Shown: positions 149 through 24,200 of the stretch, in pieces
Position numbering within the stretch: position 1 is the stretch's first letter
How the letters are laid out: every line of letters begins with the position of its first letter
NCBI RefSeq assembly: GCF_037042905.1
Contig: NC_087251.1
Coordinates: 1,364,001-1,428,000, forward strand
Direction of reading: 5' to 3'
DNA: 64,000 nt
Source of the DNA: Lytechinus pictus
Lineage: Eukaryota
Translations under genes and position numbers: made by a program
The notes under the pieces: generated by a model
What the model was told of the DNA's origin: nothing
Seen by the model: only the letters and a program-made list of their open reading frames with translations
Database searches by the model: none

Positions 149-229
149 GTGTGAGAAGATCAAAAGTACCAACTCAAACCACTTTGAATTCTCTGACTTC
201 TATGCTAAGCATAGAGCTTTCAGTAGAAG
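149..229 (+). CDS. PLCB: Candidate X-Y linker cassette exon L1, 81 nt, (G)[26 protein letters not shown](G)
   Basis: ccacacag|GT...GAAG|gtactc; phase 1-1 and open; shares RR...SLTSM with the exon at 6180. Confidence 0.65.
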
Positions 230-3200
230 GTACTCTAAGTATACAGTGATGTACTGGGATATCTACTAATAATAATTCTGCTATTGGATCATCTTTTATA
301 CCTGATGGAGCTTTATCAACATTTTAATCTATCATCTGTACATACATGTTTCCTTTCCTCTATATCCTTCTATTCATGTTGATGTTCTTGTATGGTGTGT
401 ATGGATGAGGAAGAACAGATTACATGAAGTCAGCGTATTAAAGATCCTGTCTAGTGAAAATTTAAAATGAATGAACTTGATAACATAAAGGGATATAAAA
501 CAACTTGGCTTTAGTATTGCATAACATATTGAAACCTAATTTTCAGTCCCTCTTCAAAATGGCTGTCAAACAGTTAGTTTTGCAAACTTGACAATGACAC
601 AAATTGCAATGCCGATCTTGATATCAAAGACTGCGTTTGAGAGAGGTATTTTCCTATGATAGAAAATAAGGTTCTGTTTAAATAATATTGACCTATTATT
701 CATATATTTTTTTACCACTTAGACATTGTCTTTAATAAGTGTTATTAATTTAGAGTCAGAAGGGCATCCTGTTTTTGTGATAGGAGTGACTTATGCCCTT
801 TTGGCTCTTAAACTCACTTTGGGGAATGGTTATTTAATGCATTAGAAGCAAGCAGGGGTGGTAATGCTTGCTTTCTATTTGGGCTTTTGTTGATTGGTGA
901 ATTTGCATGGATCGTGCATCAGAATATATCCCTTGCATATTTACTTATAATTTTGTGTCCCTTGTTATTATTAGATTGATACATACAGTAACTTGAATAC
1001 ATAATTTGGGGTTATGTGGTCTAAATAACAATGATGGTGGTATAGTAATGTTATAGCAAACATGAGCTAATAAACCATGGTTATTAACCATACTGCTTAA
1101 GCTGTCATACTATGCCATACTGTAATTATAACTCTTCCCACAAAAATACTTGTTGGATATTATTCTTTATATGAACAAATATCCTAGTGAAGGTTGATTT
1201 GATTGGCTGATGACTTTGATTGACAGGAAAGCGTCGATTTAGCTCCACCTCCTCTTTCACCAGTTCATTTGATGCAGAAGAATCAACGGAGACTCCGCCT
1301 TCAACGATGAGACGAGGTAGACTTCCATGTTATTTTCTATCTCACTGTCTTCACCCATTAAGAACATGGCATGTGTATGGAGCATCATGAAGAACATTCA
1401 AAGCATCACTATTGTCTTGCATCTATGACTCTGTCTTATATACAGTGCAACTGATTCTGATTAATCTTACTATGGAAAGCCATCTTACTATGGAAAATTC
1501 AGCATGTTTATATTTTGTTTACAAATGGAAAATGGTGTGGAATTATTCCATTGCTGGCTTTCCATAGTAGAGAATGATTTGAACCAAGCGAAACTCTATA
1601 TAAGATTGAGTTTATTTGGGGTTATGATGGGTTTATTGATGATATTGCTACATAGGGAATCTACAGTACATATACCTATGAAATTTGGTGTGAATCTTTT
1701 CACTGTTCCTTTTCAATAAGTGAACCTTTTACCACAATTCAAGCTTCAATCAGTAGAAGTTCACTTTTGAACTTTTTAAAAGTAACTTTTTATGATAATC
1801 AACGAAAATTGAGTTTTTGATAATAGTTTGAGAAAGTATTTTAAGCTGTTTAACCCCCCATGTAGCAATGTTCTGTTTTTTTTTTAAATACATGTCTGAG
1901 AGAATGCATAATTAACTTTTTTTTCTTTCTCCTTCAAAGGACATCTACAAGGAACACTATGATCTTCTGATAAAAAAATCTGATATTAATTACAGGCTGC
2001 TGTCATCATAGCATTCTGTAGACTAAATTTGTCAGATTCATCAAATAATTTTGCATGCACACCAAACAGTGGTCTGGAGTGAACACATGTCTTGATTAGG
2101 GGAGGGGGGGGGGTAGAAAATGTGAAAGACGAGTTTAGAATATCCAGAATATGAAGAAAAAAAGAAGGGGATGATATGGGAAATCTAACAGCATGAAAAC
2201 TCCTCCTAGTCCAGAATCTTTTGATTTACCACTATCTCTACCTCTCCCTGTGTGTTGCATGCTGATGAAGTAGCATGTGTTTATATTCACACAGGGTATA
2301 ATTTCCTGAGCCCTGGTGCTTAAATATCACTACTCTACTAATATTGCCATCAAATGGTAACTCACTTGGTAATGGGTATCATCAGCCAAACAAAATTATG
2401 GATTCCATGAAGAAATTTGGATTGCAAAGTTGATAAAATATAAAATTTTATCCACCAGGGCCTTGGTATAGCATTGTAATTTAGTATGTATTTTCTTTTT
2501 AATGGCAATTGCCCATTGTGCAGCAGATCTTTATATAGAACTTTAAGAACTTAATTGAAATTTTCCCCTAGAAATAATTCCCCTATTTTGCTGGTCAGTG
2601 AGCTGTAGGATCCAATGAGATTCTGGACTAGACCCCACTATGCATAATGCATACTACCAAAGATAAATTTGAATATTGCACTTTACATTCTTCTCTTGAA
2701 CAATGATATATTTTATCTTTACCTTGACCCCATTCCAGAAAGAGAGCATTCAAATTATGCGCAAGTTCCAAATACTTGTTGTTAATTGGTTGAAAATCAT
2801 GGATCTGTAGATGAAATATTTTATTTCAGTTTATTAGTAGTTCTTTCCCTTGTAAGGCCCAACTCCCTCCACAAGAAATAGTTTCAGACAATACATGTTG
2901 GTCTTTATTCATCCAGACACTATTTAATAAAGCCTATCAGATCTTTTAATGTGACATTCTCCATTAATATAAGTTTTTTAAAGCTTTGGTTTTGAATTCG
3001 CTTTAAGAATCACTTGTTAGGAAATGCCACCTTTATGATGGCGTGGCCTTGTAATTACAATTGATTTTACAGTGTGATTGTAACTCTGGCAAACCATGCA
3101 CAAAACATGATCTCTTCAGTCCTTACTTCATTATGTTACAGTGCCCTTATCTTGAAATCTATACTTGCAAACTCTCCCCATTCAGGGAAATGAAGAGCAG

Positions 3201-6200
3201 TGTACCCTAATTAGTCTATTTCAAGAAAATATTTGCTTTCACATATATGAGGATTTTTTTTCTTGATTATCTGTCCCTAAAAACATTTCATGCATATTGT
3301 TGTATATCATATCATATTTTTACCACATGTTGCTTTGGAACAAGAAGGATATTTCTTCATATGCCTACAGACATACATTACAGTGTAGTCAAAATCATTC
3401 TTTCTCAAAGCTGCATTGTGCTAGTGTAAGTTTCAATGAAACTTACTACATTTACAATATAATCTTATGAAGTGTTTGATTATGAATGATTTCATTTTCC
3501 TATTTTGAGTAACGTTTTCAAATGAAATATATATTATAGAAAGTTTGTGTTGGGGGCAGATTATATTTTTTTTCACCCTTTAGTTGACGAATGCTCTATA
3601 TTCTGACTATTGAGATACAGATATATAAGAAACAGATATAAATGTATGAAAGTTAGGAATTTTATTTGTCAAGGGAATTTTTAAAAATACTATTAAAATG
3701 TTTTGAAATTGTCTCTTTAAATTTTTTCTTCAATTTGTGCCGTGTTGTTTGTAATGTCATCATCTCCACATTTGTTGCAATACATGTGTACGTATTCCAT
3801 TACTGAATGTTTCCAGTTAAACTCAGTTTTGTATCAGTATTCTCATTTTCCATAGACTCTATTCCGAGTTATGTTGGGACAAATTGTTGAAGAGAATTTA
3901 TCACACTCCTTGTCATCTATTAAAAGAATCAGATTGGATGTTTGTTGATATAAAACCTTGAAAGAGGATGGAAAATGAATAAACTATCAGTATTGAATCA
4001 ACAATAAAAAAAATAGGTGATATTTGATGACACTGACATAAGATTTATAATAAACATGCATTGCATACTTTGCCAATTAAATGTCAATTCATTGTACTTT
4101 GATGGTAATAAACAAAATACTGAATAAAAAAGGAATTAAAATACAAATTTCTCACATTATAGTGTTCATAAAAATCAAATTGTTTGTGAATACATAATTA
4201 CATGTGTGTATCATGTGTCTGAAGAGTACCATACCATGATGGTGATATTGTAATATGAATATGTTTATTCAATCAGATCATTGCACTTCATGTACCAATA
4301 TATTGATTCAATAAAATCTGTCACTTGTTTATATTCTGGTACCCATGCATATTTGGACTTTATACTCTAGTTTCACAAGCATTATGCTTCATATTTATAC
4401 ATACATGGCACATGTACATGGAGTATAACACTTCATATGTTTAGGCATATATACAGTATTTAGCCATAACTTACAAGTAGTATGGTTTTCTAATCACAAT
4501 GGATATTCCTTTATTTATTCCAATTATGTATGCTTCTATAATTTGTTATTATTATTGTTGTTATTGATTATTATTATTATTATCATTATTATGGTTATTA
4601 TTATCATTAGATTATTATTAATATTATTATTATTATTATCATCATCATCATTAGTAATAGTATTATTGTAATAAAATTGAATAATCTATATATTTGTTAT
4701 AAATTAATTAATCAATTAATTGATTATTCAATTAATAAATTAATAATTTATGTAAATATTTATTTAAAAAATTGGAAGGGGTTTATAAAAATGATTGTTA
4801 AGGTCTAAAATCCTGATCTCAAATGTATATGATGAATGAGAAAGGTCACTTTATTACAATGTACAGCGTATATCTATAAATGAATATGGGTACATGTATT
4901 TTCACAATTTTATGATTCACTTCTTTTAGCATATCTTTGCCAATACAGTATATGGTTGTTTTAGGATAGATATCACAAATTGAGACCTTATACCTCAAAA
5001 AAATTACTTAAAAAATAGATATTTCCAACATTTTGAAAGTATTACATGAAAATATAATTTCATTCTTTATGTAATTTCCCTTTTTCAGCCTTATGTGAAT
5101 CCATTCATAATATTCACTACAATTGTATTTCAAAGAGAATAATTAGTGCACATTATTATAATAAATAAATATAAATAAACTGTATGGATTTTTTTGAGTA
5201 AGATTGGAAATGTATTCCGCTTGAATTTCTTTTATGAAATATAAGTGTAATACTTATAATATTTGATTCATGATTGTCTTTAAAGGTCAAGTCCACCTCA
5301 GAAAAATAGTGATTAGAATCAATAGAGAAAAATCAGACAAGCACAATGCTGAAAATTTCATCAAAATCGGATGTAAAATAAGAAAGTAATGACAATCAAA
5401 GTTTCGCTTATTTTCACAAAATAGTTATATGAACGAGTCAGTTACATCCAAATGAGAGAGTTGATGATGTCACTCACTCACTATTTCTTTTGTTTTTTAT
5501 TGTTTGAATTATATAATATTTCAATTTTTACGAAATTGACAATTAGGACCTCCTTGCCTGAACCACAAAATGTTCAAATAATGGAATTTCACGTGTTCAG
5601 GGAGGAATGAAACTTCATTTCACATGACAATGACTAGAAAATCAAAATATTTCATATTTCATATAATAAAATACAAAAGAAATAGTGAGTGAGTGATGTC
5701 ATCAGTTCCCTCATTTGCATACCAACCGAGATGTGCATATAACTGTTTTGTGAAATGAAGTGAAACTTTAAAATGTCATAACTTTCTTATTTTACATCCG
5801 ATTTTGATGAAATTTTCAGTGTTATGCTTGTTGGATTTTTCTCTTTTTATTCAAATTAAGTTTTTGTTGGGATGGACTTGTCCTTTAAAAGCAACAAAAC
5901 ATTTTATTTTTGGTTAAAAAGAGTAACTTTCATATTTCTTTTGAAATCACAGGAACATTGTAAAATGTACCATGTATTGATTAAAGAATGTTTGTCTGGG
6001 ATCCCAGTATATCCATCTGTATTTTGAAATGTCTTGAATTCGATATTCGTGTTTCTCATTTGGATGTTAAGAGCAGGAAGCTAGAATGTATTTTATAAAA
6101 CATTTTTGATTACATATCAAACCCAATGCTTAATGAAGGAATGAAGATTGGCATTGACATTACTTTTTTCTGAAACCAGGTCGTCGACTTCAGAGTACGA

Positions 6201-9200
6201 CATCATTGACATCCATGGATAGCGGTGATGCTCCTGTTGATATTAGGCCTAGTCGGTCAGGTAGTACACCTAGTCTTGTTATCGCAATTGATTATCACAT
6301 TACTTATTCAAGCCTTTTCAAGCTTATTAATCATTAACTCATGGTGGTGTCACTTTCATCTCGATACAGACGAAATGGAAAAACTTACAAATGGGAGGTA
6401 TTAAACAGTATATGTTAATACTCTATTTACGCTGTAGATTTGCTACTTCCAAAGGATTTATACCTTGATATTTTCATTCTCTTTCACTTTTTGATGAAAT
6501 AGCCTTATTTCTGCTTTGCACCAATGAAGATTAATATTGATTGGTAAGGTGAAATTGTGGATTGGAAGCTTGTATGCATTGGCACACGCAAAGCTAATTT
6601 TTTTCTTTCTTTTTAATAGGGACACACATACTTGAGTTTAGATAAATTCTTTACATTGATATTTATTGTACAGTATAGGGCTTATGTTATGATGTACTAC
6701 TTTAACCTAAAATCTCTTTTATTGGTTCTTTCAAATAAAAGCATTAAATCTTTTCAAATTACTCACTTGAAAGCAGTTTCAACTAATACAATTATCTTTA
6801 TGGAAATTGCAAAAGTGCTTACTTTGTCTCTGTAGTAGTGGATTTATTCCCTTCTTGCTTTTACTAACAAGAGAGAACAATTCTATGCTCTTCAGGCTAT
6901 TATGTTTCTGCATTGATAAGCTAAGATATCTAGACCTGTACTTCTTCACTTTTAATTTTCAATTTTGCCACTTCAATTTTTTATCATATTCTAGAGCTTT
7001 TACATTATATTGCCAAAAGCAACACTTGTAATACTTGTCTGGGATGAAAATTCATGTGTTTTGAGCCGACTGTGTACATTATCATTGAATTTATCCACCA
7101 CAGCATCTCGGCGAGGTAGCAAACGTAAAATGCTCCTCCAGATTGCCGAAGTGACTTATGATGAGACTATTAACCCAGACGACCCAGGTAACCCGGGGCA
7201 ACACTGTCCAGCTTTCATATTTTCACATAGCACTGCAACTTGAGAGAAATTCAAACGCAAACAATTTCTTCTCTTTCTATCTCAAAGCATTAGAATTAGG
7301 TTACAGTAGAATTTCACAAAGTTTACAAGAGAGATCATTGGAAAATTCAACAAAGTCACATCATTAAGTGATTTCAAGTTTGGTGTTAGCACGTGTTTGT
7401 GGTGGAAGAGCACCATTTAGATTGCATTCCCTAAGTCCAGTGTATTAAAATGATTCAAATCACATTGTTAATAGACCCTTACATAAAACTTGTCTCAAGA
7501 CCAGCTTGGTGATGTACTGATGTAAAAATCAATCCAACACCAAGACCAAAAGGTCAACATCAAACTTGAAATCATCCATTGTGCTTTTCTAATATTCAAC
7601 TGAACTTGTTGACAGACTTGTATACGTATCAGCATTATTCATAGCAAATGTAAAGCTTTAAATCAATCCATGCCTAGCTAGCATTATTATCCAACATATC
7701 ATTATCATTGCAGGAGGACTTTAAAAAATGTAAAAATCCAGAGATTGATAATATCAGAAGTTAAATAAATCTAAGCAGTTGAAGCCAAATGTCATATTTT
7801 TATTTTTTTTAAATCCAATGATCTTTTCATTTTTCACTGAATCATGCACCTGTAAAATTAAGCCTTCATCACAGTGTCTTATACTTTTCAAGTTGAATTA
7901 TGGCCAAAGAGTTGCCAAAATGTTCATCCGCCCAGGAGTAAAATATATTGTGCTTAAGCTTTGCCTGTCACAAACCACAATTTGGTTACCCTGGGGATGT
8001 ATTTTAAGGATATTCTCTTGTTAGCCCTGGGGCAATCGTTGTAGAATTGTTAGGGGAAAAGACAGTGAATGAAAACTGAGGCTGAACCAGTTTTAGACTT
8101 CATACTGGGTTTGCTGGATATGTTGGAAGTGCTTCAGTTGGGATTCTATTGTGATGCTTGCTTAATACTCTGATGACCTCTGCCATTTTATGATGAGGCA
8201 TGTTTATACCTGACTTGACTTATGTTAGATTTTTAGACGGTAAAATTGAAAATAGAATTGATAATATAATCTAATAATGCTAATAGGCACATTTTTTTTA
8301 ATAGTGTTGGACATTAGCACCTTTACTGCACAGGTGCCGTATGTTGCATTTTAAAGAATTTGGTATCCATTTACTATACCCGTTTGGAGAGCGGTAAATT
8401 TATAATGTCTACAAATGATGAAGGTCCAGGGAGGGGGGGGGGGGGTGGGCGTGGGGTTGCATGTATAAAGCTAATCTAATCCTGTTATTTTGATACTTCC
8501 CAAAGTCTAACATCAGTCAGGTGGTTATGCATAGCCTTATCACATTGCTGGCTTATGTGTGTGAGGTTTGGGTGCTATGAAACTGCATGCTAATACCTTG
8601 GTCACATTTGCTCTACGACGGCCATACGACGAGTCGAAAACATTCGTTTTATTCATTTTTATTCAAACCGCCTATATGTAGCTAGTGCCAAAAAATGTTA
8701 AAACAGCTGCTTTCGACTCGCCGTACGGCCGCCGTAGAACAAATGTGACCAAGGTATATTTACACCAGGAGCTATATTCACAAAACTTAACGGAGCTGGT
8801 CACAGTATCAATCAATTACAATGGCCACAGTAGCCTACTAAGTAAGCCCACAGAGCTACAGTTTAGAAGAATGGAATATGATTTGAAAGAGCAATATAAG
8901 TGCTGATGCCATTTCTTAAAGCTATTCAAGTAAAGCTTATCATTAACACTCTTAAATTTGCAACATAATTTAAAAAAAAAAAGAACATTAATGAAATCTT
9001 GCTATTTCTGCTTATTTTTGGGGGACGTGTCTCATATTTTCTTTAAACTATTTTAACTGAGTAATTATTGCCAATTTAAGGATTGAAGCAGATTAATAAT
9101 AAAAAATAATCTACCTCTCTGGGTATATGTTTTCTGAGTATGGACCTTGGTATTTTAATTTCTTATTTGATTTGCTATACAAGGAAAGGATTTAAGAAAA

Positions 9201-12200
9201 TAATTTATATTTAAAGCTATGCATAGTAATCTGATTCTTTTATGATTTGAATAAAAAAAATTCAGCTTTAGTACCATTTTTCAAGTCTAGCACATTGCTT
9301 CGAAATAATTGGCAAAGCTTTCAAAAATGGATGATCTATAAGAATACATTTTGACCTATAATTTGATTTTAATGTTATGCCACTGATTTCTAAAATCTAC
9401 AAATTCAATGCCTTTTATTAAGCTGAGGATTCAGCATATGTTAATACATATGTGTGTATGTTTAGTAATTAATGTGTGTGTGTTTTTCATTTGTAGAACT
9501 TCTTTTATATACTTGATTACTGTGAATGATTGGGTGATAAACAATAAACAAATGTTAATGATAAATGTTTGATCATAAGCAGATACATTGCTTCTTGATA
9601 ATTGCCATTGTACTATTCACTTTTGATTACCATTACTTAACATGCTTAATGATTTAACTACATTCCACAATTTCATTATTAAAACACACTCCAAAGAAAA
9701 AATGTTACATTAAAAAATGTATTCAAGTATCATCAATAATGATGATTATTCATATACAGTGTTCATGGTGTGTTGCTGTTATGAGATGTTTTATTTAATT
9801 TGGTCAGTTTGCTTCTCAAAGAAAATCAATTTATTGCAAGTTTGAAATAAATTACTAACACTACAAGGATTTCTTCAAGCTTCTATTGGTATATGTAAAA
9901 ACAATTGCAAGGAAATTAATATAGATTGTTCAAATATGGAGGTAACTCCAAACGACCATAAACTCAGAGTTTTACCACAAATTTCATTCATTTTCATCAT
10001 AATATTTCATACTTTTCATTTCAAATCAGGTCATATATCCGAATTTCAAGCAAAACCCACAATTTTTCTCTTAAAGTACAAAGTACATAACGTACAAATC
10101 ATGTTATGCGACACTAATGATCATGACATAAATCATTATATTTAATGTACTCCTGTTTTACCAATCATTTTGTTTGTTTTGTTGTAAATTTGATGTTATG
10201 AATCAGGTTCATGTGTTAAATTATGTTTCATTTTCCTATAAGGTAATCTTTGTAATTGGTTTTTCTTTGTAAAACATGTAATGTACATGCACAGTACTTT
10301 CTGATTACAAGCTCAAATTATATATGAGCTATATACCCAGCTTTCATACATTATAACCAATTACAATGGATAGTGTCAGATCACATGTTGGAGTGCCTCT
10401 CTATAGCAAGTGGTGATTGATAGCCAATAGCGATCTGTTCTCACTCATGCCATGGATAACAAGTCATGATAACATCCGAATGTTCCTGATCACCTCTTGT
10501 TATTAACAGGTGTAATTATATTTTCATTGTGGCATATTACATTTTGCCATGGATAATGCGCATTGCTGCCATTGATTGTATAACCTATTACCCATCGTGA
10601 GTGCTTGTAATGTATTAATGACATGTTATTGATCACATATTGCAATTTACAGCATGTGGTAATAACCTGTGATGGATATGTAACTGATCACCACTGGTTA
10701 TTGATTGCGCTATCCATTATGAGTGGTTATAATCTCTGAAAGTGCACATAATGTAACAGGGATGGAATTTCATTTTACCTTCCTGTAAAATGTACACGTA
10801 CAGTACTGTGAGAACAATAAGTTAGTAAACTCTTGTTTGATGTAAAACTTCTTAAAAGTTTGAAGTACTAACATATTGCCAACGATAATTTTTTGTTGTT
10901 GCACTTTAAGTTGTTTGTTTTTATTGGAAAAGTAGCAGTAGCCTATAGAAACACATTGTATGTATGACTACTTATGTAATAAAATTGGCTCTCTTTTCAT
11001 TTCTCATTTCTTGTCAGAAAATGAAATATATGCATTACCTTTTCTAGCATACAAATGCTTTTATTATTTTCAGTTAAAATAATTACCATGATTAATGATT
11101 ACCTAATGAGATATTCCTTTATAATATTGAATAATTACATTTTGCTTTTTCTTTCACTTTAATGTCACTTTGACTTTCCTAATTATAAAACGTCCGTGAA
11201 GCATAGATTTAATCATTTATTTTATTCTTGGCTACCATTTCCTCTTATTGCTTGTATCCTGCTCATATTTCATAATTGTATTTTCCTTTACAGGTAGAAG
11301 GAGGTGGTAATGTCTGATGTTTATCCAGCTTCATTAGAAGAGACATTTCTTGTTCACAATCTATTTATATATTTCAAACATATTGTTTCCCTTAAGACAG
11401 CCTTTAATGATAGGAGATTAGTATCTGAAAGATCTGCTTTTTGTATGATAAACAGAGGGCTGCTATTATGCATTAATGCCCTTCTGGTTCTCATTAGGTT
11501 ACATATATCCTTTTTATCAGCTAAGTCTTTGACTACAGACATTTAATTTAAAAATGCATATTTTGCTCATCATTCACATAATGTGTTAAATTTGTCAAGA
11601 TTATGTTCATTTTTTTTACTCAAATAAAAAAAACCATCTTATGTTTTTTGTTTGATCATAAGAAAATGGATCATGAAACTTGTTCCCCTTATTTTATTTT
11701 CTATATTGGGGGAATGTTTATTTTTTTCTCTCTAAATCAACTAACATTGTAATATGTAAACAAATGAAGCACATGGAATATTTTGCTTCATTCTTGTCAT
11801 TGATTTTTCTTGTTGATAATTGAAGTTTTATTTGATTAATTATGTTAAATTCTGGGGTTTTTCATAAGAACTTTAAAAAGAGAACAACGTTGCTTGACAT
11901 GAATGGAGTCTTATTACATTGTTTGTAACTACTAGTTCAATAGTTGTTGCTAATCAATCATTCAAATTTCCCCTTTTATGCAACATTATTCGATGAAAAA
12001 GGAAAATTAAGCTTGAGGGGAACCGAGTCAGTGCCCATAGCTCTTGCTGAAGATACTAATATTGAAGGTATGGTTTGTGGTCAGTACATGAAAATGAATT
12101 AGTGGGACTGCATGGATGACCAGACCAATTCTTCTGACTGATTGTAAAATTGTTTGATGGTATTCTATAGTGGCCCTATAGAATGCTTGATTATGACATG

Positions 12201-15200
12201 TCATACTCCATGAATTTCATCACCTTTGTTTGCCAATTTGAAGACCTTACAATAAGTCAATTATTTCATCGGAGAACTCTGACACCTTTAATCACTTGTT
12301 GATGATGTGGGTTAAAGATCCAGACCGGACCCGAAAATGAAATTGATAAATTATATACCAATCGAAAGCTTATAAGCTACTAAATACACCAAGGTATGCT
12401 TTATGCATTTTCACCGCTTCCCAGCTGAGTATTTTTCTTAAGAATATTCCAATTATCGGGTTTCGAACCCCGCTTAGAAAATAGGCTTTATTGTGCTTTT
12501 CACCTGCCTCGAGACCGTGACGTCACGTTGTGTAAGAAGCGTCGTGATTCCATAGGTTTGTACACAAAAAAACTGGGTGATTTTTTTGCTTTCCAGATAA
12601 CGCATTTCATTCTCTCACTTCTATCACAGAGGGATATCACATATATTTTTACCCACAAGCTTGAATTTATGAAATCTGCAGTTTTGAACTAGTTTTTGCC
12701 ATATTTTATTTCCTGCGTATTTGGCGCAGATTTCAATTCTATCTGCATTAAGATTATGTATAACAACTTTTCCTGACATAGCAATTTAGGCCCAATAAGA
12801 GCCAAACAAAGAAATCACAAAAAAGGTAGTGAATAGTTGTAGGTTTACAACAATTTGAACAGTGAATAATTTTGAGTGCCATTTTCATCTGAAAACGAAA
12901 AAAAAAATGGATTCATAACATGGAAATGGAAGAAAATACCCAATGCTTTTGTACACAAACCTATGGAATCACAACCCTCCTGACACAACGTGACGTCATC
13001 ATTTCCAGGCGACGTGGGGGGTGCTCAATCGAAGCGTACTTTGGAGGAGCAGTTTCTTTGATTTTTATTTAATATTTTTAACTATTGGAAGGAGATATAT
13101 GTAATATTTTTGGTATATTCGCATTGTATGAATCATTACCTTTATTTTGATATATGATTGTTTTTACACCGGTCAGGGTCTTTAAGAATCATTTTACAAC
13201 TTTTAGTTCCCCCCCCCCCTTTATTGTTGCAGGAATAAAGTTCTCACCATAGTTTTTTTTAATCAATTATTTCAAAGATCATGACTAGAAACATCTACTT
13301 TGATGCAAACTTAGTCAAATGGTTGTGTGTGGTTGCAAACTAAACATAATATGACATTATACTCAAGCATTTGTTAAGGCCATTATAAGCACCATGCACT
13401 GGATTATGCAATTTATTTATTTTTTTTCTCTTTCATTTTGTACTCTTTGACTGAATATAAGTACTTAGTTAGGATTTAGACACATGAATATTCATAAAGG
13501 TCTGTAAATAGGAATTCCTATATTATGATGTTTCTCGTTGGGATATTGGCAAATGGAAGATATTTTAGGATTTGCATTTTAGGTGTTTAAAAAGAAATTT
13601 GGATAAGAATGAAGAAATATTAGCAATTAAAATACAAATATGTGATACTCTGTTTCTAATGAGCTTGGGTTGACAGAAGTAAAATAAATAATAAAAGTAC
13701 CATTATAGAATATTCCATTTTCCATCTATAACAGTTACCTTACATTTCTAAAATATGATTTTAAAGTTCATGTATAATTTTTCCACTATTATTTATTTTC
13801 GACCCTGAGTATGATCTTTTTCTTAGAGGTGAATGATACAAATTGCACAATTTAAGATTGAAACTAAATTTTTACCTACATCTGAATGTATCACCTTAAA
13901 CAAAATGAAAAATAAAATAAGTGACATATCTCTAGAATGTTCTTAAGTAAAACTGTATTCGTTCAAAACAAATCCTCAGTTTATCAAATTACTTTAATCA
14001 ATCAAGATGGAGAAGATTTTTTTATTTATTAGGTCTTTATACAGGGTAGCCCTTTGAATATAGAGTATTGTTCTGCCAAGGGGCCCTGTCTATACAGATA
14101 AAAACATTAAAAATATACACAATAAATTACAAAGTAAAACCTTACATAATACATGATAATAATAAACAAAACAAAATAGTATTATAATTCGGATATTAAT
14201 CACATTCACGCAAAAACATCCACACACACGAGCACACAACCTCACGCACACATACGCCTACACAAAAATAAATATATTACATTAAAAAAAAACAGAAAAC
14301 AACAATAAAAAGATCAAGCTGGTTTGAGAGATAAAGATGTGACTTTGCTTTTGAATTTAAAGTAATATATTGAACTACATTTATAATGATGTAATCAGTG
14401 TTATTTACTTCAAATATGTAAACCTACTTTAATGGGTATGTTCCTTGTTGAACTTTAAAAGCTACATTGAAACATATATATGATCCTTGCAAAAACAGTT
14501 ACATGTATTAGACAAATCTGAAGACAAGCAAAATAACTTGTTGAAAGAAGGCACTTGTACTCTTAATTTGTTAAATTAAATATTTGATGGGAAATTATTT
14601 TAAAAGCTCTTGTATGATAAAATATCTCTATCAAATTAGTTAAGTTTATCACCATTGTCCATTTAGCTGTTAGAGTCTTGAATTTTAGTATCCCAGACTA
14701 AATACAAAAATCTGTACCATTTGCAATAGTTATTATTTATACAGTGCATCCCAGAAAAAACGAAACCGAGATTAAGCGATGATTTATCATAACTTAATCA
14801 CAAATACAATAGACAAATGACCTACCAATGCAAAGGTTATAATCTCCTCTTTCATCTGATATTACTTAGATTATTCCTCATTCACGCATGATTGAGCAAA
14901 AACAATTTGAAGAAAGGATACCAAAAACTCATTTGGCGGGGGGGGGGGGGGTATCTGAATTTCAATAAGAAAATCACATGCCTAAAAAGTTAAATATCTG
15001 CTCTTTTATTTGATACCTTAATCACAAAAAATGGTCAAGAAGTAAAAAATTATGTTCCCTCGAAACGATGCTTGTATTTCCATAATTTCATTAAATAAAC
15101 GTGTTTTAACCGGTTTCCCACAGAAGCTATCGCACGGTTAACAAAATACTTAATGCATGGCTGATCGTCAACAAAATGAAGTGTCGAGTGACATGGAATG

Positions 15201-18200
15201 CTAGCCTGTAAAACCTCTTCATTTTATGAAATTATTGAAATTCAAGCCTTATTTCAAATAACCAGAACTTTGTTATTTTTGACCATTTTCTGTAATTGAG
15301 GTATCAAATTAAAGAGCAGATATTGAACTTTTTAAAAATGTGGTTTTCTATTTGGAACCCAGATACAGCAAGCCAAATGACTTTTTGGTATCTCCTCTTC
15401 AAATTATTTTTGCTCACTCATGTATGGATGAGAAATAATCTAAGTAATTTCAGATGAAAGAAGAGATTCTAAGCTTTACAATGGTAGGTCATTTGTTTAT
15501 TGAATTTGTGATTAAGTTATGATAAATTATCGATAAATCTCGGTTTTGTTTTTTGTGGGACGCACTGTATATTTAGTTGGGTAAGATTAATTTTGGTCAC
15601 ACCAGGATATTAATATTACATGAAGTAAATAGTGTATACACTTTAATAAAGCTTATATACCAGATATAGGGGTACATCTACACACCCTACTGTATATTAC
15701 CAGCATGATGTGGTTACCTCTCATCTCAATTGACTCATTTCTATGTGTACTTTATCACATTAATGACAATGCATGGAGCTTCACATGGTTAATATTAACA
15801 TTGCATTGCATATCAACCCAACAAGCATGGTATCATAAATTTATATATATTTATTTGATAAGACTGTTTTGTCATTTTATGTTATGTTTTGTGCTGTTAT
15901 CATCTTGTCTATCGTCAAAATGTTTGTTGTTTATGAAGTCAATTTAGTATTTGTATTTGTTCACAGTTTCTTTCACTTTCGATGACCAAGTTGAAAAATA
16001 TCTTGCATGTTTATTGCTTTGAAAAAGAATGCCTCAAAACGAAACTGCTGCACCAGAGTCTTTTGCACATCAAAGATGTATTTATTGATCATTTTCTTGT
16101 TGTTTTATCATATATGAACAAAAATTCTTTGTGTTATTTATCTTTTCATCTCTTATGTTTTAAATTGAACATTCATTGTGATTTTGATATCATAACCTAC
16201 AGCATTTGTACAAATTTATGCAGTGCATGTATGTTTGTGCTATGCATTTATTAACTATTTTCCTTTTCCTTTTTTTTCTATTTGCAAATAATCTTGTAGG
16301 CAAGGGAGTGAAGACGATAGAAGAGACCGCCGAGACACCAGAACAGGGTGGAGAAGGTAATTGTAATTTGTATGGATGAGTAACAATGTTACATATGGAG
16401 GGAGTAAGGGCAGTAAAAGACATTGCCTGTTTCTATGGCAAAATTTATTTTAACCATTGTTCTGCAATACAGCAAATAATGCATGGATCGCTCTTCCCGC
16501 ATGAACGCAATTTATCAGCAAATAATATAGCCTCTGAAAGAACAAAATATCAAAGTAGTAAATTGTGTATGTTGCTTTGGACAATACACCTGTCAAAACA
16601 TACTATAAGCCACCAATATAAACTCACTCGGTCTTTGGCATTCTAGTGAGTAAACCTGGATTTAACCCAAGACTCAAAAATCATTTTGCTTCACACCTCT
16701 ATGGAGTGCTAGGTTTCGTGTTCCTTTTTCAAATCACTTAAAGATAACACTGAAGAATCCATTGAAACACATTATAAAATCACATTATTTCTCAACAAAC
16801 TAATTGTTTGGACTGATATTCACTGCAATATTAAATTATTGCAATTAAAACTGTCAACTGGCATTCCATAAAACTGTGGTGTAATTTAACTTGTAGGACA
16901 TACTTTGATTATGAATGGTATGTGATTACCACCCAGTGTTACCGCCCAAACAGAATGAAGAGCAAACTTTATTCATGGATTTTAAAGAAGAGGTGTCACA
17001 AATTTTGTTCAATCTTTATGAGAATAACCACATATGTTATGCATGTGTGTATAACCCCAGTCATATTAACATGTCTGTGTGTCATGTTTTGAAGGAATGG
17101 CTTTTGTAGTACCCCACCCCAATCTGTTGTCTGTATGCTTTTTGTCTTCCCGTCTCTATGGTTACAGGCAGTGTAAATAAAGAGGGTTCATCGCCCTCAA
17201 CACCTGAAGATAAACCATCAAGAACAGAAGGTAATGATATTGAATTTTAACTACTTTGCTCATGTAATGGTCTATGTATTTCAAATATTGAAAAGTTAAG
17301 ATATAATACAAACAGAAAAGTAAACAATAGAAATAAAGAAATAGATTTGTTTGCCAAATAAATGCTCCAATTTCTATATTGTGGTGACTCTGATTTTTAT
17401 TCTAAAAAAAATTACATTTTAAACTTTAGGATTAATGATATCATCACTATATTCAAGGTTAATTGTTGCCATTTGTTTGCCAAAGAATGCCAGTTTGCTT
17501 TTGTCAGAGATGTATATAATTGCAGGAAATGTGAGTTTTACCTAATTTTAGAATATCTGAGCTTTTTTCAAGTGTTGTGTGAATGTTTGCCATTGTGGCA
17601 AGATTCCTTTTTTATTACAATCTATCAGAATAGTGAAATGTTTACACCGAGCTGCATGATCTATAGTCAGCTTCCAAAACGTTCACTGTTATAATACATG
17701 TATAATGTTTATTTGTGCATGCTACATGTGTATGGAATGAAATTTAAGTATATTATTATATTGCAATATTTATGTCATTAGTGTGCTAAAATAATGTTTA
17801 CTTATTACGCTAGTATTTTAAAAAAGAATCATATGTATATTTTGTTTTTTTATCACATAATGTGATACATTTTATTTTTAGAAAATGGGCAAAAATGGGA
17901 ATATAGAATTTGAAAGTTTTGCCTATATTACAGTTACATATCACATAGGATGTTTATGTAATTGAGTTGATGATGTCATCCGTACCTGTTCATTTTCATT
18001 TTATGAAATTGAATTAGTGCCTTGATGTATTTCTGCAATTTATTACAGCCAGAATGAAATAAACTTTATCTTAAAGAATTTTTAAAGACTTTCCACTGTG
18101 GACTCCTTGTGAATTGGAGGAATCCAAATAATGATTTTTTTTAAATTCCTATGTGATCTTACTCTCATCTAATGTTTAAAAGTTGTACACATTTATATTT

Positions 18201-21200
18201 TGTTGTGTCATGAGTCAACATCTACATTCACAACACAAGACTTTAGGAAGGTAAAAAATAGAAAACACGTTATGGTCTATAAACTCATTGCATCCCAGAA
18301 AAAAACCCAATAAACTTTTGATCCTCATAGAATAAAAGAACAGGAAGATGAACACTTGAAAAAAGAAAAATTGATTGATGGCCAAGTACATCACAGTTTC
18401 AAGATAATGTGTAAGAAATTTGAAGAATTCTCATTAGTATTCTTTCTTCAGTATATTGTATTGTATATACATGTAGTATTGTATCGGTTGCTGGTTTTTT
18501 TTTTAATGGTAATATTTCACTGATGATCTTCGAATGTTCCTAATAAAAGATGATATACAGGTGTATGCAGCTACATGCGGCCTGTTCATTGCATATTCCA
18601 TTGGATGTTGGTAGTCCCCTTGTTATGACAGACTTGAGTTTATACAGTGAAAATTTGATAAATGAATAAGCTTGTACTGGAGATGGGTCCTCTTAACATA
18701 ATACTTATTCTTACTGGTAACCTGACCGCCTTTTGCAAAATACCATGAAAACAATCTACAGCCAATCAAAATCAGGCTATCCATCTTTAGTTGTAAGATT
18801 TGTTGGCTGCTCATAGTTGCTATACATTATATTTACATCAATCACATTTTATTCCTGTATTTAGTATCAAAATAAGATTGATTGAGGATATGTGCTGATT
18901 ATATTTAACAGGATATGTGCTGATTATATTTAACAGCAAGTGTCAAAACTCCACCACAAAATTTTGTGGATTAGACTCCATTTCAGACCAAGACTGGCGT
19001 TAAAAGTGAAATTGACAAATGGAAAATATATAAGCTACATAGTAGAACAATGTAAGTTTCATGCACCACTTGACAGCTGAGTATTTTGATTCAATAGGTT
19101 TGTACACAGAAAAAATGGTCCTAAGCTGAATGCAGATAGAATAGGAACGCTGCACCAAATAAGTGGGAAATAGAATATGATAAAAAGTAGCCCAAAGCTG
19201 TAGATTTCATCAATTCAAGCTTGGAGGAAAAGATATTTATGATACCACTATATGATAGAAGTGAAGAATGTGTAATCTGAAAAGTTACGGTCCGTGTTCA
19301 AACCTATATGGAATCACAATGCTTCTAACACTTTATGACAGCATGGTCTTGAGGCTGGTGAAAAGCATGTATAAGAAAGCCTATTTTCGAAGCCCAATAA
19401 TTGGAGCTATTCTTCAACAAAACAAAGTACTCAGTTGGTAAGCAGAGAAAATGCATGAAGCTTGCATTTCTGTGTTAAGTAGTTTATAAGGTTTCGATTG
19501 GTATATGATTTGTCAATTCTACTTTTGGGTCCGGTCAGGGCCTTTAAAACTCTGAATATAATTTTACCAAAATTGAAGGACATGGTGCTACCTTTTGCTC
19601 AGCTCTTAAGGACGTTCCACAGTTATGTTTGTGCGCATTATGATCTGCGCATAGTTTACACTCTGCGCACTGACGTCACAATGGATGAACAGGTGATTAA
19701 TTAGCTGCGGGTATGAGCTGATTTTTCTCATCTTCTGCACTTTAACTGCAGATCCTATGTGTTATTTCATGAAACTAAAAAATTGAATTATTCCATGGAC
19801 CATTCAAAAAAATTTCTCTACAATTTCAAAATACTTTACCCTGCAGTGCTGCCAAGAATCACGAATATTACCCCGAGTTTGAATAAATGGTAGAGTGGTT
19901 TTGATTTTTCTTCACATAGATACAAAGCATTCGGCGCATTTTTGGTGTTTTAAAAAGCACATTTGCTCTAATAAAAATGCTGATAGTTTAAAAACAAGCA
20001 CATGAACCCCTATTTTTTAATGTTTGTACCTCTTAGGTATACCTTCCTCTACAACTCTGCAAATTTTGGTGAAAATAACATGGATTTTGAATAAAGTGCA
20101 GCATATATTGTACGTTTGTAGTTTGTTACTGAAATTTCACATTTTTTAGATTGGGATTTTGTTATCTTTTACGCCATTTTTAAGAACTGGCAGTGCTGTT
20201 AAACTTAAAATTGCAAACAAATAGCACTATAAATAGATTCTCCATTCTAATGATACAATTATTAACTCTCTTGCGAAATTTTATGACTTTTTCATGTATT
20301 TTGACTGAGTAATAGAGGTTTAAACTCATTGTAGTAATCTTGGGCGGTCTACAAATGCCAAATTCGTTTGAATGCGCAATTCTTAAGAATATCAATTTGG
20401 GTGAACTTTGAAGCTCTATAGCAAAAAATCAAGCACATGGACCTATGTTAATTTTTGCATATTTCGAATATTAAGGTTCTAAAGTATCTATGAGCAAAGT
20501 TTGGTGAAAATGACATGGATTTCACTTTAACTGTGGAACGTCCTTAAGATCAGAGCGAGGACGTACTACTTGACATTTTCCTGATCAGAGGTCAAAGTTA
20601 AGATACCAAATAATGAATTGTGCTTCAAATTGAATAATGTTACTTTGTTATCAAATTAAAAGGTAGCAAGGATGAGAGTGTTCCCCCTGGCTCTGAAAGA
20701 AAAGCATCAAAGGGAGATGGTAATTTTTTTACTCTCACTTCATTTCCTAAATTTGTTTTCAAAGCTTTGATTTATTAGAGAGAATAAAAGGTTGGCAGCT
20801 ACAGGTATACCAATGAGTTAAGTGGCATCTGTCCATTATTGTCATATTATTTCCACAAAAGATCTTCTATTCAGAAGGTGTAGACTGATTTTAAATTGAA
20901 TTGTATTAATGGAAGCAGTTGTCGTATGTGACACTTAATATAAAAAACTGTTTGATATTTGGAGTTCGGTATTATATAGTTGCTAAACATTATTTTTATT
21001 TTCAATCTGTCATATATCTAGGCCATAGTTGTCTATTGTCAAAATATTTAATTCAATTTTTTTTCCTCAAAACTTCTGATTAAGCTTGGTCATTACATTC
21101 TCACTACCATATTAAGTAACTCAATGGTGTGGTGACTGCTAAACAGTAATGTTACTTGAAATGCAATAGGAAACATATACAAACACACATTATTGACATT

Positions 21201-24200
21201 CAAAATCTACTGTTTACATTTGTTATTATTTATTTGCTTGTTTACTTGTTTCTGCTTAATTGATACATTTACCTAATTTTATTATAGTTTATTGTATTAA
21301 ATCAAGAGAATCATTTGTTTTATTACATGGATGATTTATTTTGGTGTGTGTTCACAAATGCCAGCAGCTGACCGGGGAAACTTTGTGTCCTAAGTTTATA
21401 AAGAACTAAAGGAAGGTAAATACAATTAGTTTAGATTAAGTTTTGGAAGATGTTTTGATTGTTTTAGCTTGATCGTTTCCTTCAAACAGTGAAAAGTGAT
21501 GACTTGAAGCCGAGAAAAAAATTATCACGGCAGGATGCCCAAGGTAAAAAATTCTTACTGGTTTATATTTTGTTGATAATAATTTCCTTTAAATTATACA
21601 GAAATAATGAAATGTTACTCATACTTTGAGCCTTATATCATCAATTATTTCATTAATTGAGGTAATAAGATTTCGGGAACATCCCTGTTCTCGTACATGA
21701 AATTGTCTCCTTAATTTTTTCTGTTTTATGAAGTAGGATAAATCCAAAATTATGTTATATATATTACACCATTATGGATATAATTTACAATCATGGATTA
21801 TCTTATATTTTCATCTTGATGTTTATGATTATTTATTTTTATTCAATTATATTCATCTTTACTCTGGGGCTGTTGAGGGACATTGTATTATTTTCATTCA
21901 AGGAATATCTTAAGAATGCTCTCCAAAAAAGTTCATCACTTTGTCATTTTTATTTATTGAACAAAGCTCAAGTTCATTTTGTAATTTGTATTTAAGGACA
22001 TTTTATTTGCAATTTGTGGAATATTTCTATTTTCTATTTGATTTCTTCATTTTTATTTTGTGATATCAATCAATATGGTGTGTGCAATGCTTTCATTGAA
22101 ATTATCCAATAAAGTTCTTAGAGATGATTTGAAAATTCTTTGTAAAGTAAATACATATCTTGTAGCACAAGCCTGCAAAATGTGAGTTTGATGGTGACAG
22201 AGGTCTTTAACTCTTTGTCCTTTGATTTGTTTTCAAGCAAATGCATATGTGATATTTTGAAAAGTGTATTTTTCAGTCTTTGATAGTCTTTTTATTTATT
22301 GAAAAAAGATGAAGACTCAGGCAGCAGTAGACCGCCCCCTCCACGTGTAAAGAGAAAAATAACCAAAATGGATACTCAAGGTAATAAACAACAACAACAA
22401 CAGCAATAATGATAACATTCTCAAGGATGTCTGCATCTGAATTCTACATTGTATTTTAACCATGCATTAATCATACAATTTAATTATATGCTTGCTTTGA
22501 AAAAAAGAAAGAATTTGCTATACATGTCCTTGTTATTGTTATTTACATCTACATGTATTGCTCTTTATGACTAGTGTATGGTCAAACCTCTTCCTGTACC
22601 TTCTTTATTTTCCCTTTATAAAACAAGGATAGAAGATTACTAATCATGGACCTATCACATACAGTGAAACACAGTATAAACAGCTCATCATGTTTTCATT
22701 TATAAATATATTTATTTTCATGTATAACCGTTACAAAATAAAAGGAAAGTTTTTCTTCAGTTTTAATGAGGGTTAACATCTTGTCAAAGTATTACATTTT
22801 GGCTACTTTTTATATAAATGTATACCATGTTGATGTGATTGTGGAGGGATAATTCATGCATTGATTGTGGTTTATATTTAAGTATGGAACATTATTAACA
22901 TGGAATCAATCATAATGTAATGGGTGACTCATTATCATTCGGTTAATGTGGTTTAATAACACCATATCTGTAATATTTTAAAAATTATATTGTGTAATTG
23001 CCATAAAGATATGTGCCTTCAGCTTAAAGGTAGAATATTAGGGACACTATAACATTCGCAATGCAAATACTTTAATTCATTCAATTATGATAGTCAGTAA
23101 ATGGGACATGCAAACCTAAATGAAACTAGAGTACGACTGTTTTGTGTGACTTTGTGTGACTTATTGAAACAAATGAATATCATTTGCTTGCTATGGGAGA
23201 TATTAAAAACATATTGTCCATTTATCATGTTGGACAACTTAGGAACATGCTTCTAATGTATGCACTATGAAAGAATTCAGTTTCACGGTACATTTAAGGT
23301 TTAGTGATGAGTTTTAACATCGTGCCTTCAGAAATTTAAAATTGTTTGTACATGTAAACCTGCACATGGTATTTGTACGTAGTGTACACATACCTTACAT
23401 CTTTTGTCTGATCTTGAAAAATTAATGGTCACAACAATTATTTAATTCACTCTTGATAAGAGTATATTTTTCAGAAGTGATTGAGAGAGAAAGATTGAGA
23501 AAGAGAGAAAAAGAAAGTGTGAGTGAATTCTATGTGTATGATGAAAAAGGTCACTTGATAAAAAAAAAATCTTTTAAAGATGATATTCATTAGCAAAAAG
23601 AAAACAAGCCTCATGCTTAAAAATATAATTGCATATTCTGTGATATCAATGAAATATGAGGTCATTCAACATTCCATAATCATGCATAAACCATAAGTTT
23701 TAAATGTAACATTATGACACTCCAGCAAGCAGCTCCTGACATAGCTGAGCTCAATTGTTTACATAGCATTAACAGAAATGGTGTCTCAAAGTTTGTTTTT
23801 TACACTATAGATATTTCTGAACCAATTTGCTTAAAATGAGTCACTTTTTTTTATTCATAAGTACTAAATACAATTTAATATCAGTATGCCTAACTTATTT
23901 TCATTTTATATGACAAAATAGTTATGCAAAGCATCACCCCGATACTGGGCCTGCTCTTATTTATGTTCATTTCATTTCAGTTTCTAAGCATGTTTATTGA
24001 AATGTTTTTGATTGAAGGCCTGCATTGGTGTGGATATCACCTCAGTAAAATTATATCTCAGATTCTTACTGTTTTCAAACATTCTTGGGATTTTCTTTAA
24101 TTTTGAAAAACATGCTTCTATAGTAAAAACAAATTAAATTGAACACAGTCATCGATACATAGTGCATTGTTATTAGGTTTTTTCTAATTATCAATTTTGT

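Follow-up and report, generated by a model that had tools for sequence, protein, structure and literature searches.

Phospholipase C-beta (PLC-beta) acts as the principal effector downstream of Gq-coupled receptors, and the linker between its X and Y domains (X-Y linker) is a key brake on its activity. We analysed a stretch of 64,000 nt from the sea urchin Lytechinus pictus (NC_087251.1, positions 1,364,001-1,428,000, forward strand; hereafter the window, whose own numbering is used for all positions), which protein similarity identifies as most of the L. pictus PLC-beta gene, of the PLC-beta1/2/3 type. In this gene, ten short exons (E1 to E10) precede a constitutive acidic exon (E11) in the X-Y linker. 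The ten are almost certainly real, alternatively spliced coding exons, and E1 is probably one of them. Seven (E1, E2, E4, E5, E8, E9 and E10) are cassettes in the L. pictus gene models and three (E3, E6 and E7) are constitutive. All ten exons already stand in public gene models, and the value of the analysis lies in its comparative and mechanistic reading rather than in gene discovery.

In the accessible text of two studies, the linker, which carries negative charge, covers the active site and is pushed away by the membrane (PMC10296670; bioRxiv 10.1101/2023.08.29.555394). For human PLC-beta3, the accessible text of the second places the linker at R471-V584 (114 residues) and reports that deleting all of it raises basal Vmax about 2300-fold, and that deleting the 10 residues in contact with the active site alone raises it about 700-fold; its authors assign most of the inhibition to these contact residues and discuss repulsion of the adjacent acidic stretch (bioRxiv 10.1101/2023.08.29.555394). 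Mammalian PLC-beta1, PLC-beta2 and PLC-beta3 have the same domain order as the L. pictus protein and are its best sequence matches (human PLC-beta3 structures 7sq2, 8emv and 4gnk), and their X-Y linker, too, contains an acidic stretch and, after it, a segment that precedes the Y domain. The L. pictus X-to-Y interval is, however, longer than the 114 residues of human PLC-beta3, spanning 174-265 residues across isoforms. Mammalian PLC-beta splice variants, as described in the accessible part of PMC12195575, are C-terminal and do not lie in the linker.

Alternative insertions in an X-Y linker are described for another PLC class, where the PLC-delta4 forms ALT-I and ALT-II carry 32 and 14 additional residues, respectively (PMC2172882, accessible part). 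These are one or two insertions, whereas the urchin gene has seven cassettes among ten linker exons. Other echinoderm PLC-beta genes (Strongylocentrotus purpuratus, Diadema, Acanthaster, Patiria, Asterias and Apostichopus) share with L. pictus the many isoforms of the X-Y interval and the conserved acidic exon, but their middle and distal cassettes differ between classes. The models of the sea stars and the sea cucumber allow every cassette to be skipped, leaving a vertebrate-sized linker, whereas the L. pictus models always keep E3, E6 and E7. More generally, tissue-regulated cassette exons occur in disordered, phosphosite-rich protein regions. The urchin cassettes resemble these in being short, symmetric, rich in Ser/Thr and charged residues and predicted to be unstructured, but differ in that their inclusion is broadly similar across the three RNA runs described below. 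No paper on the splicing of echinoderm PLC-beta linkers was found in full-text literature searches, whose coverage leaves out most subscription journals.

An earlier note, made from the letters of this stretch, had assigned the gene to PLC-beta, and the assignment is borne out by full protein identity, Pfam domains and solved relatives. With the translated acidic exon as query, the matches are 100% identical in L. pictus PLC-beta-1-like proteins, 93% in S. purpuratus and 74-77% in two Diadema species. About 36 exons were mapped by tblastn, all on the plus strand, from 24 kb upstream of the window to window position 47112; the window itself is AT-rich animal DNA with a GC content of 0.26-0.38 per 2 kb. 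On isoform P0015, the Pfam models PH_14 (5-92), PLCB1-4-like EF-hand (99-169), EF-hand_like (165-256), PI-PLC-X (268-418) and PI-PLC-Y (684-798) all match above their cut-offs. No Pfam model for a C2 domain passed E<=0.001 on P0015; its C2 region aligns to PLC-beta chains with many invariant columns. The PLC-beta C-terminal model PF08703 matches at 1133-1390 with an E-value of 9e-5 and 22.5 bits, below the curated 27.6, and is assigned in precomputed lists to S. purpuratus and other orthologues. Among solved structures, human PLC-beta3 chains are closest (E 6e-261 to 3e-255), with weaker matches to cephalopod PLC-beta (about 1e-248), PLC-beta2 (8e-228) and PLC-delta1 (4e-97).

All ten exons have the properties claimed for them in the earlier note, namely an AG acceptor, a G-GTA donor and a length divisible by three, with a total of 705 nt (Table 1). 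They are of phase 1-1, free of in-frame stops, and each is open solely in the frame that continues into the acidic exon. All ten exons have a final G and a length that is a multiple of three. Any junction therefore stays in frame, and the residue of the split codon is set by the downstream exon alone. The exons have a GC content of 0.38-0.56, compared with 0.31 for the region. The suggestion that the array may extend further upstream did not hold, since the last exon of the X domain is found 1.55 kb ahead of the window and no linker residue of any gene model falls outside the 11 exons, so that the array stops at E1. By eye, E1 resembles E3.

Table 1. Exons of the X-Y linker of the L. pictus PLC-beta gene and flanking exons, in window coordinates, with the number of the 34 L. 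pictus protein records that include each linker exon.
Feature	Position	Strand	Length (nt)	Records (of 34)	Description
Last X-domain exon	-1661..-1554	+			Located by tblastn, before the window
E1	149-229	+	81	1 (older nr-only record P0007)	Cassette; 27 codons including the split codon; AG/GT sites, phase 1-1; weakest support of the ten
E2	1227-1316	+	90	20	Cassette; Ser/Thr-rich, with a basic-basic-x-Ser site at its start
E3	6180-6260	+	81	34	Constitutive in L. pictus models, cassette in S. purpuratus
E4	7104-7187	+	84	26	Cassette; most deeply conserved motif, basic-x-Ser followed by a Leu-Leu-Gln-Ile-like hydrophobic stretch
E5	12002-12067	+	66	7	Cassette, replaces E4 in models; A-rich, weak acceptor
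E6	16300-16356	+	57	34	Constitutive linker exon; net charge -3
E7	17168-17230	+	63	34	Constitutive linker exon; in-frame 3-nt deletion allele
E8	20663-20719	+	57	17	Cassette; basic-basic-x-Ser site; weak, A-rich acceptor
E9	21490-21543	+	54	28	Cassette; net charge +3
E10	22309-22380	+	72	14	Cassette; proline run and basic cluster, net charge +2; weak, A-rich acceptor
E11	25696-25862	+	167	34	Constitutive acidic exon, net charge -15; phase 1 to 0
Exon after E11	26630-26740	+			Approximate bounds (tblastn of P0007 and P0001); constitutive; linker end and start of Y domain; expected to encode the segment that contacts the active site

To ask how much weight the splice-and-frame pattern carries, we scanned the interval between the X-domain exon and the acidic exon for an AG acceptor and a G-GTA donor enclosing a segment of length divisible by three that is open in phase. 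On the plus strand there were 24 matches: the claimed exons account for 10, nested versions of these for 6, and 8 are additional. On the reverse strand there were 13, and 100 first-order Markov simulations averaged 13.8 +/- 5.0 and reached at most 27. The pattern thus occurs at background level and by itself is no evidence for an exon, so that outside evidence is needed. The 8 additional matches, which belong to no gene model, code for hydrophobic peptides, and the selection of the ten in the earlier note was correct.

Such evidence comes from the annotated proteins. We collected 34 L. pictus records from 90%-identity clusters, covering two annotation releases and isoform names up to X26; with 15 of the 19 members of cluster 1 listed, the inventory is a lower bound. 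All ten exon peptides are found letter for letter in RefSeq L. pictus PLC-beta isoforms, and the concern that annotation could have missed these exons did not materialise, as all ten are in the RefSeq models X1-X26. Together with the acidic exon, the ten account for every linker residue in all listed records. At least 18 different linker patterns are present among the 34 records. The patterns fall short of the free choice of any subset that had been envisaged: E3, E6 and E7 are always included, E1 and E2 are never found together (0/34), nor are E4 and E5 (0/34), and only five of the eight possible combinations of E8, E9 and E10 occur, with E8 or E10 never used without E9. E4 and E5 do not behave as a strictly mutually exclusive pair either, since one of the 34 records has neither and E3>E6 is the main form in RNA. 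A search between E3 and E6 for selector and docking inverted repeats that could govern a choice between E4 and E5 found just hairpin-like repeat elements and weak A/T-rich pairs.

Further evidence comes from RNA. We examined three stranded raw runs carrying the L. pictus label (X12, X13 and X14; about 6% of each) and, as a fourth run, the contigs of a separate study (X1 contigs), all over window 6100-26000, which spans E3 to E11; 15 of the 28 joints were listed. The first mate of exonic reads lies on the minus strand throughout, as expected for a plus-strand gene in a standard stranded library. GT..AG junctions were recovered exactly at the claimed borders of E3 (donor), E6, E7, E8, E9 and E10. 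Counts in X12/X13/X14 were 20/34/18 for E3>E6 (plus one X1 contig), 39/47/29 for E6>E7, 35/47/20 for E7>E8 (both alleles of E7), 21/13/13 for E7>E9, 0/1/5 for E7>E11, 24/43/18 for E8>E9, 32/37/20 for E9>E10, 9/6/1 for E9>E11 and 31/28/10 for E10>E11. The X1 contigs independently contain E3>E6, E7>E9, E7>E11, E9>E10, E9>E11 and E10>E11. Loose read ends at 25863 continue into the exon after E11.

From these counts, E8 is included in 53-77% of E7-donor junction reads (35/56, 47/61 and 20/38 in X12, X13 and X14) and E10 in 78-95% of E9-donor junction reads (32/41, 37/43 and 20/21), and the whole E8-E10 block is skipped in 0-13% of E7-donor junction reads. Use of both splice sites together with a skipping junction was found for E8, E10 and the E8-E10 block, and a skipping junction for E4 and E5 jointly. 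The claim that the exons are alternative therefore stands for several of them, with reads that skip E8, E10, E8-E10 and E4+E5 and with models that vary E1, E2, E4, E5 and E8-E10. None of the joints listed for X12-X14 and the X1 contigs involves E4 or E5, and RNA depth over E5 is 0 in X12-X14 (bin 11412-12075).

The same reads carry a small number of sequence differences. Two well-supported exonic ones are synonymous (16340 A>G in E6 and 21530 G>T in E9). The third is the deletion allele of E7 (17218-17220), in which 3 nt are lost in frame and with them one Ser codon. This allele accounts for 20/56 of the E7-donor junction reads in X12, 28/61 in X13 and 0/38 in X14. We take these differences, like the raised GC content of the exons, as signs of constraint.

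We then compared the exons with PLC-beta proteins of other species. Eight of the ten have orthologues at the protein level, and E2-E4 extend to sea stars and a sea cucumber. In S. purpuratus (14 full-length records, after two short fragments of the cluster were dropped), orthologues of E2, E3 and E6-E10 are used as cassettes. E3 is skipped in some of these records (P0040 and P0043), unlike in L. pictus. E2 is 97-100% identical in S. purpuratus and Lytechinus variegatus proteins, and E6 has 94-100% identity in other camarodont urchins and can be aligned in the two Diadema records. The Diadema records have E3, E4 and E6, and their distal cassettes have diverged. For E4, short-query blastp found matches in Apostichopus (3e-6), Diadema (1.7e-5) and Asterias (1e-3). 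P0009 and other S. purpuratus records contain an extra 16-residue cassette between the E7 and E8 orthologues, and a similar Ser-rich one is present in Diadema; a search of window 17231-20662 for an L. pictus copy gave best scores within the intron background.

A MAFFT alignment of nine linkers places E2, E3 and E4 in register across three echinoderm classes, with both the basic-x-Ser starts of E2-E4 and the hydrophobic stretch of E4 retained. This sharing across three classes indicates that the proximal cassettes are old. The distal cassettes are, by the sequence comparisons made here, echinoid-specific. E1 and E5 may be young, unannotated elsewhere or doubtful, especially E1. A homologue search with the linker alone returned 11 echinoid clusters and nothing further. 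Among the best 120 of 7462 matches of a search with the full-length protein, sea star and sea cucumber orthologues are annotated with many isoforms. Measured as the residues between two conserved anchors, the linker interval is 81-310 residues in Acanthaster, 170-336 in Patiria, 187-296 in Asterias, 70-249 in Apostichopus, 146-180 in hemichordates, 132-154 in crinoids, 137-171 in amphioxus and about 60 in cnidarians. Among animals it ranges from about 44 to 336 residues.

Across the L. pictus isoforms, the net charge of the linker varies from -18 to -11 and its content of Ser plus Thr from 31 to 55. Splicing leaves the acidic stretch and the segment in contact with the active site unchanged, and the acidic exon E11 is conserved across echinoderms. 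Directly before the acidic stretch, E9 and E10 are net basic. Five of the ten linker exons contain a strict [RK][RK]x[ST] site (5 sites in all; residue shuffles gave 1.7, P=0.023), and the number of such sites in the linker varies with splicing. In the S. purpuratus linkers compared, those of E2, E8, E9 and E10 are retained, and the basic-x-Ser site of E4 recurs in Diadema, the sea stars and the sea cucumber.

On balance, the best overall explanation is that the cassettes are disordered regulatory inserts in the linker, a reading that we favour by a modest degree. The cassettes would carry conserved basic-basic-x-Ser/Thr kinase sites followed by Ser-rich runs, both putative, and splicing would tune the length or reach of the linker, its charge and its responsiveness to kinases according to tissue. 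Since the acidic stretch and the exon that follows are constitutive and all cassettes precede them, it is improbable that the cassettes themselves form the inhibitory element; the constitutive C-terminal part of the linker would carry out autoinhibition, which the cassettes would modulate rather than switch. That kinase sites and charge tuning are the actual function is more tentative, and we place it somewhat below an even chance. A stronger version is less likely again: the cassettes may be switchable charge modules, ancestral to sea urchins, sea stars and sea cucumbers, in which a basic-x-Ser priming site followed by a Ser/Thr run would, upon phosphorylation, lengthen the acidic stretch. 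If this were true, tissue-specific splicing would set whether and how strongly kinases of the PKA/PKC/CaMK type alter the autoinhibition and membrane release of PLC-beta, a coupling of splicing, phosphorylation and G-protein signalling that is not known to have been described for any PLC-beta.

Several observations weigh against regulatory inserts. In the accessible text on human PLC-beta3, the effect of the 10-residue contact segment is increased only about 3-fold by the disordered part of the linker (bioRxiv 10.1101/2023.08.29.555394), suggesting that the effect of the cassettes on basal activity may be small. The enrichment of kinase motifs is modest (P about 0.02) and was sought after the sequences had been seen. 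An AlphaFold2 model of the Diadema antillarum protein from a 28-row alignment is poor (mean pLDDT 53.7, pTM 0.28) and only weakly informative: the cassette region is coil with a pLDDT of 25-30, the linker as a whole and some of the Y domain score below 50, and the sole linker helices, of low confidence, are at the end of E11 and in the exon that follows it. The main RNA form in X12-X14 joins E3 directly to E6 and skips E4 and E5, a pattern present in one of the 34 records, the other 33 including one of the two exons. RefSeq isoforms are built from short reads, and the 18 full-length combinations rest on assembled models. Finally, short-query blastp of the non-L. pictus PLC-beta proteins examined found no orthologue of E1 or E5, and neither the linker-only search nor the linker alignment detected counterparts of E6-E10 outside echinoids.

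These last observations also bear on the rival that survives best, in which the linker is a disordered spacer that tolerates cheap insertions and the cassettes have little or no consequence, some of them being lineage-specific exonisations. The missing orthologues of E1 and E5, the restriction of E6-E10 to echinoids, the extra S. purpuratus cassette and the wide range of linker lengths among animals are what such tolerance would produce. So are the weak acceptors of E5, E8 and E10, and the splicing-factor motifs GCATG, YCAY, TCTT/CTCT and YGCY showed no enrichment within 300 nt of the exons. Tolerated variation does not readily account for E2-E4 being kept with their basic-x-Ser sites across three echinoderm classes, for polymorphisms that are synonymous or in frame, for the frame being kept by all ten exons, or for inclusion that is substantial and similar in three runs. 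We therefore regard it as possible but rather improbable.

The earlier note had gone further than regulatory inserts and proposed a combinatorial, splice-tunable autoinhibitory module, in which any subset of exons could be included. In its strong form, where each choice would set its own level of active-site occlusion, this is unlikely, even though ten frame-neutral exons make any subset readable, the models hold 18 patterns, the junction reads reveal several independent choices and the linker is autoinhibitory in PLC-beta according to the accessible text of both studies cited above (PMC10296670; bioRxiv 10.1101/2023.08.29.555394). Three of the exons are constitutive, E4 with E5 and E1 with E2 are never combined, and E8-E10 use five of eight combinations. 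Moreover, the main carriers of inhibition in human PLC-beta3, as far as the accessible text goes, are the acidic stretch and the contact segment, and the cassettes are located upstream of both.

Equally unlikely is that the cassettes mainly carry targeting or partner-binding motifs, so that splicing would shift the location or binding of the enzyme and not its autoinhibition. E10 has four prolines and then a Lys/Arg cluster resembling a nuclear-localisation signal, kept in S. purpuratus and matched by an Arg run in the Diadema counterpart, and both E9 and E10 are net basic. These motifs were, however, read by eye alone. Splice variants of mammalian PLC-beta1 do alter localisation, but the precedents in the accessible part of the source concern the C-terminus and not the linker (PMC12195575).

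That some of the ten, above all E1, are chance pattern matches taken up by an automated model is very improbable: the pattern alone occurs at about the chance rate, and E1 is in a single older, nr-only record and is without an orthologue, but the automated model placed it with both splice sites, the peptide it encodes shares the hydrophilic, Ser/Thr-rich character of the neighbouring ones, in contrast to the 8 hydrophobic chance matches, and for the other nine the models plus reads or orthologues exclude this explanation.

Other parts of the gene and of the window showed further features. Relative to the S. purpuratus and Diadema setosum proteins, all L. pictus records begin about 61 residues further in, and the PH_14 match on the L. 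pictus model starts at profile position 44; the first exon or exons coding for the PH domain, upstream of the window, may be missing from the L. pictus models. A second alternative region is found in the C-terminal linker, with a micro-exon of 14 residues (36786-36827) and a Ser-rich exon of 52 residues (38037-38192). The L. pictus models use one or the other, and both are present in S. purpuratus isoform X15 and in the Diadema setosum protein.

The introns contain several repeats. A 28-bp minisatellite of 18.2 copies with 91% matches (26110-26616) fills the intron after the acidic exon and stops about 14 nt short of the acceptor that follows. Repeat elements lie at 8593-8757, 12506-13010, 14738-15571 and 19380-20700, three of them hairpin-like inverted repeats. 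The high RNA depth on both strands of these intronic repeats, their many loose ends and the very high depth of X1 contigs point to multi-copy, transposon-like sequences. Within one inverted repeat (12506-12595 / 12921-13010), in the E5-E6 intron, position 12535 shows a strand-specific A>G difference, seen in 68/78, 69/71 and 30/42 reads of X12, X13 and X14 with the first mate on the minus strand. It is absent from reads with a plus-strand first mate (0/35, 0/54 and 0/76) and from the X1 contigs. This difference could be RNA editing of the hairpin, or reads from other copies of the repeat.

Taken together, echinoderms appear to vary the X-Y linker of PLC-beta by splicing about four-fold, from a vertebrate-sized minimum to more than 300 residues. 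These isoforms provide naturally occurring linker variants with which the contribution of the disordered part can be examined, and since L. pictus is a laboratory sea urchin, its isoforms are open to expression, assay and editing.

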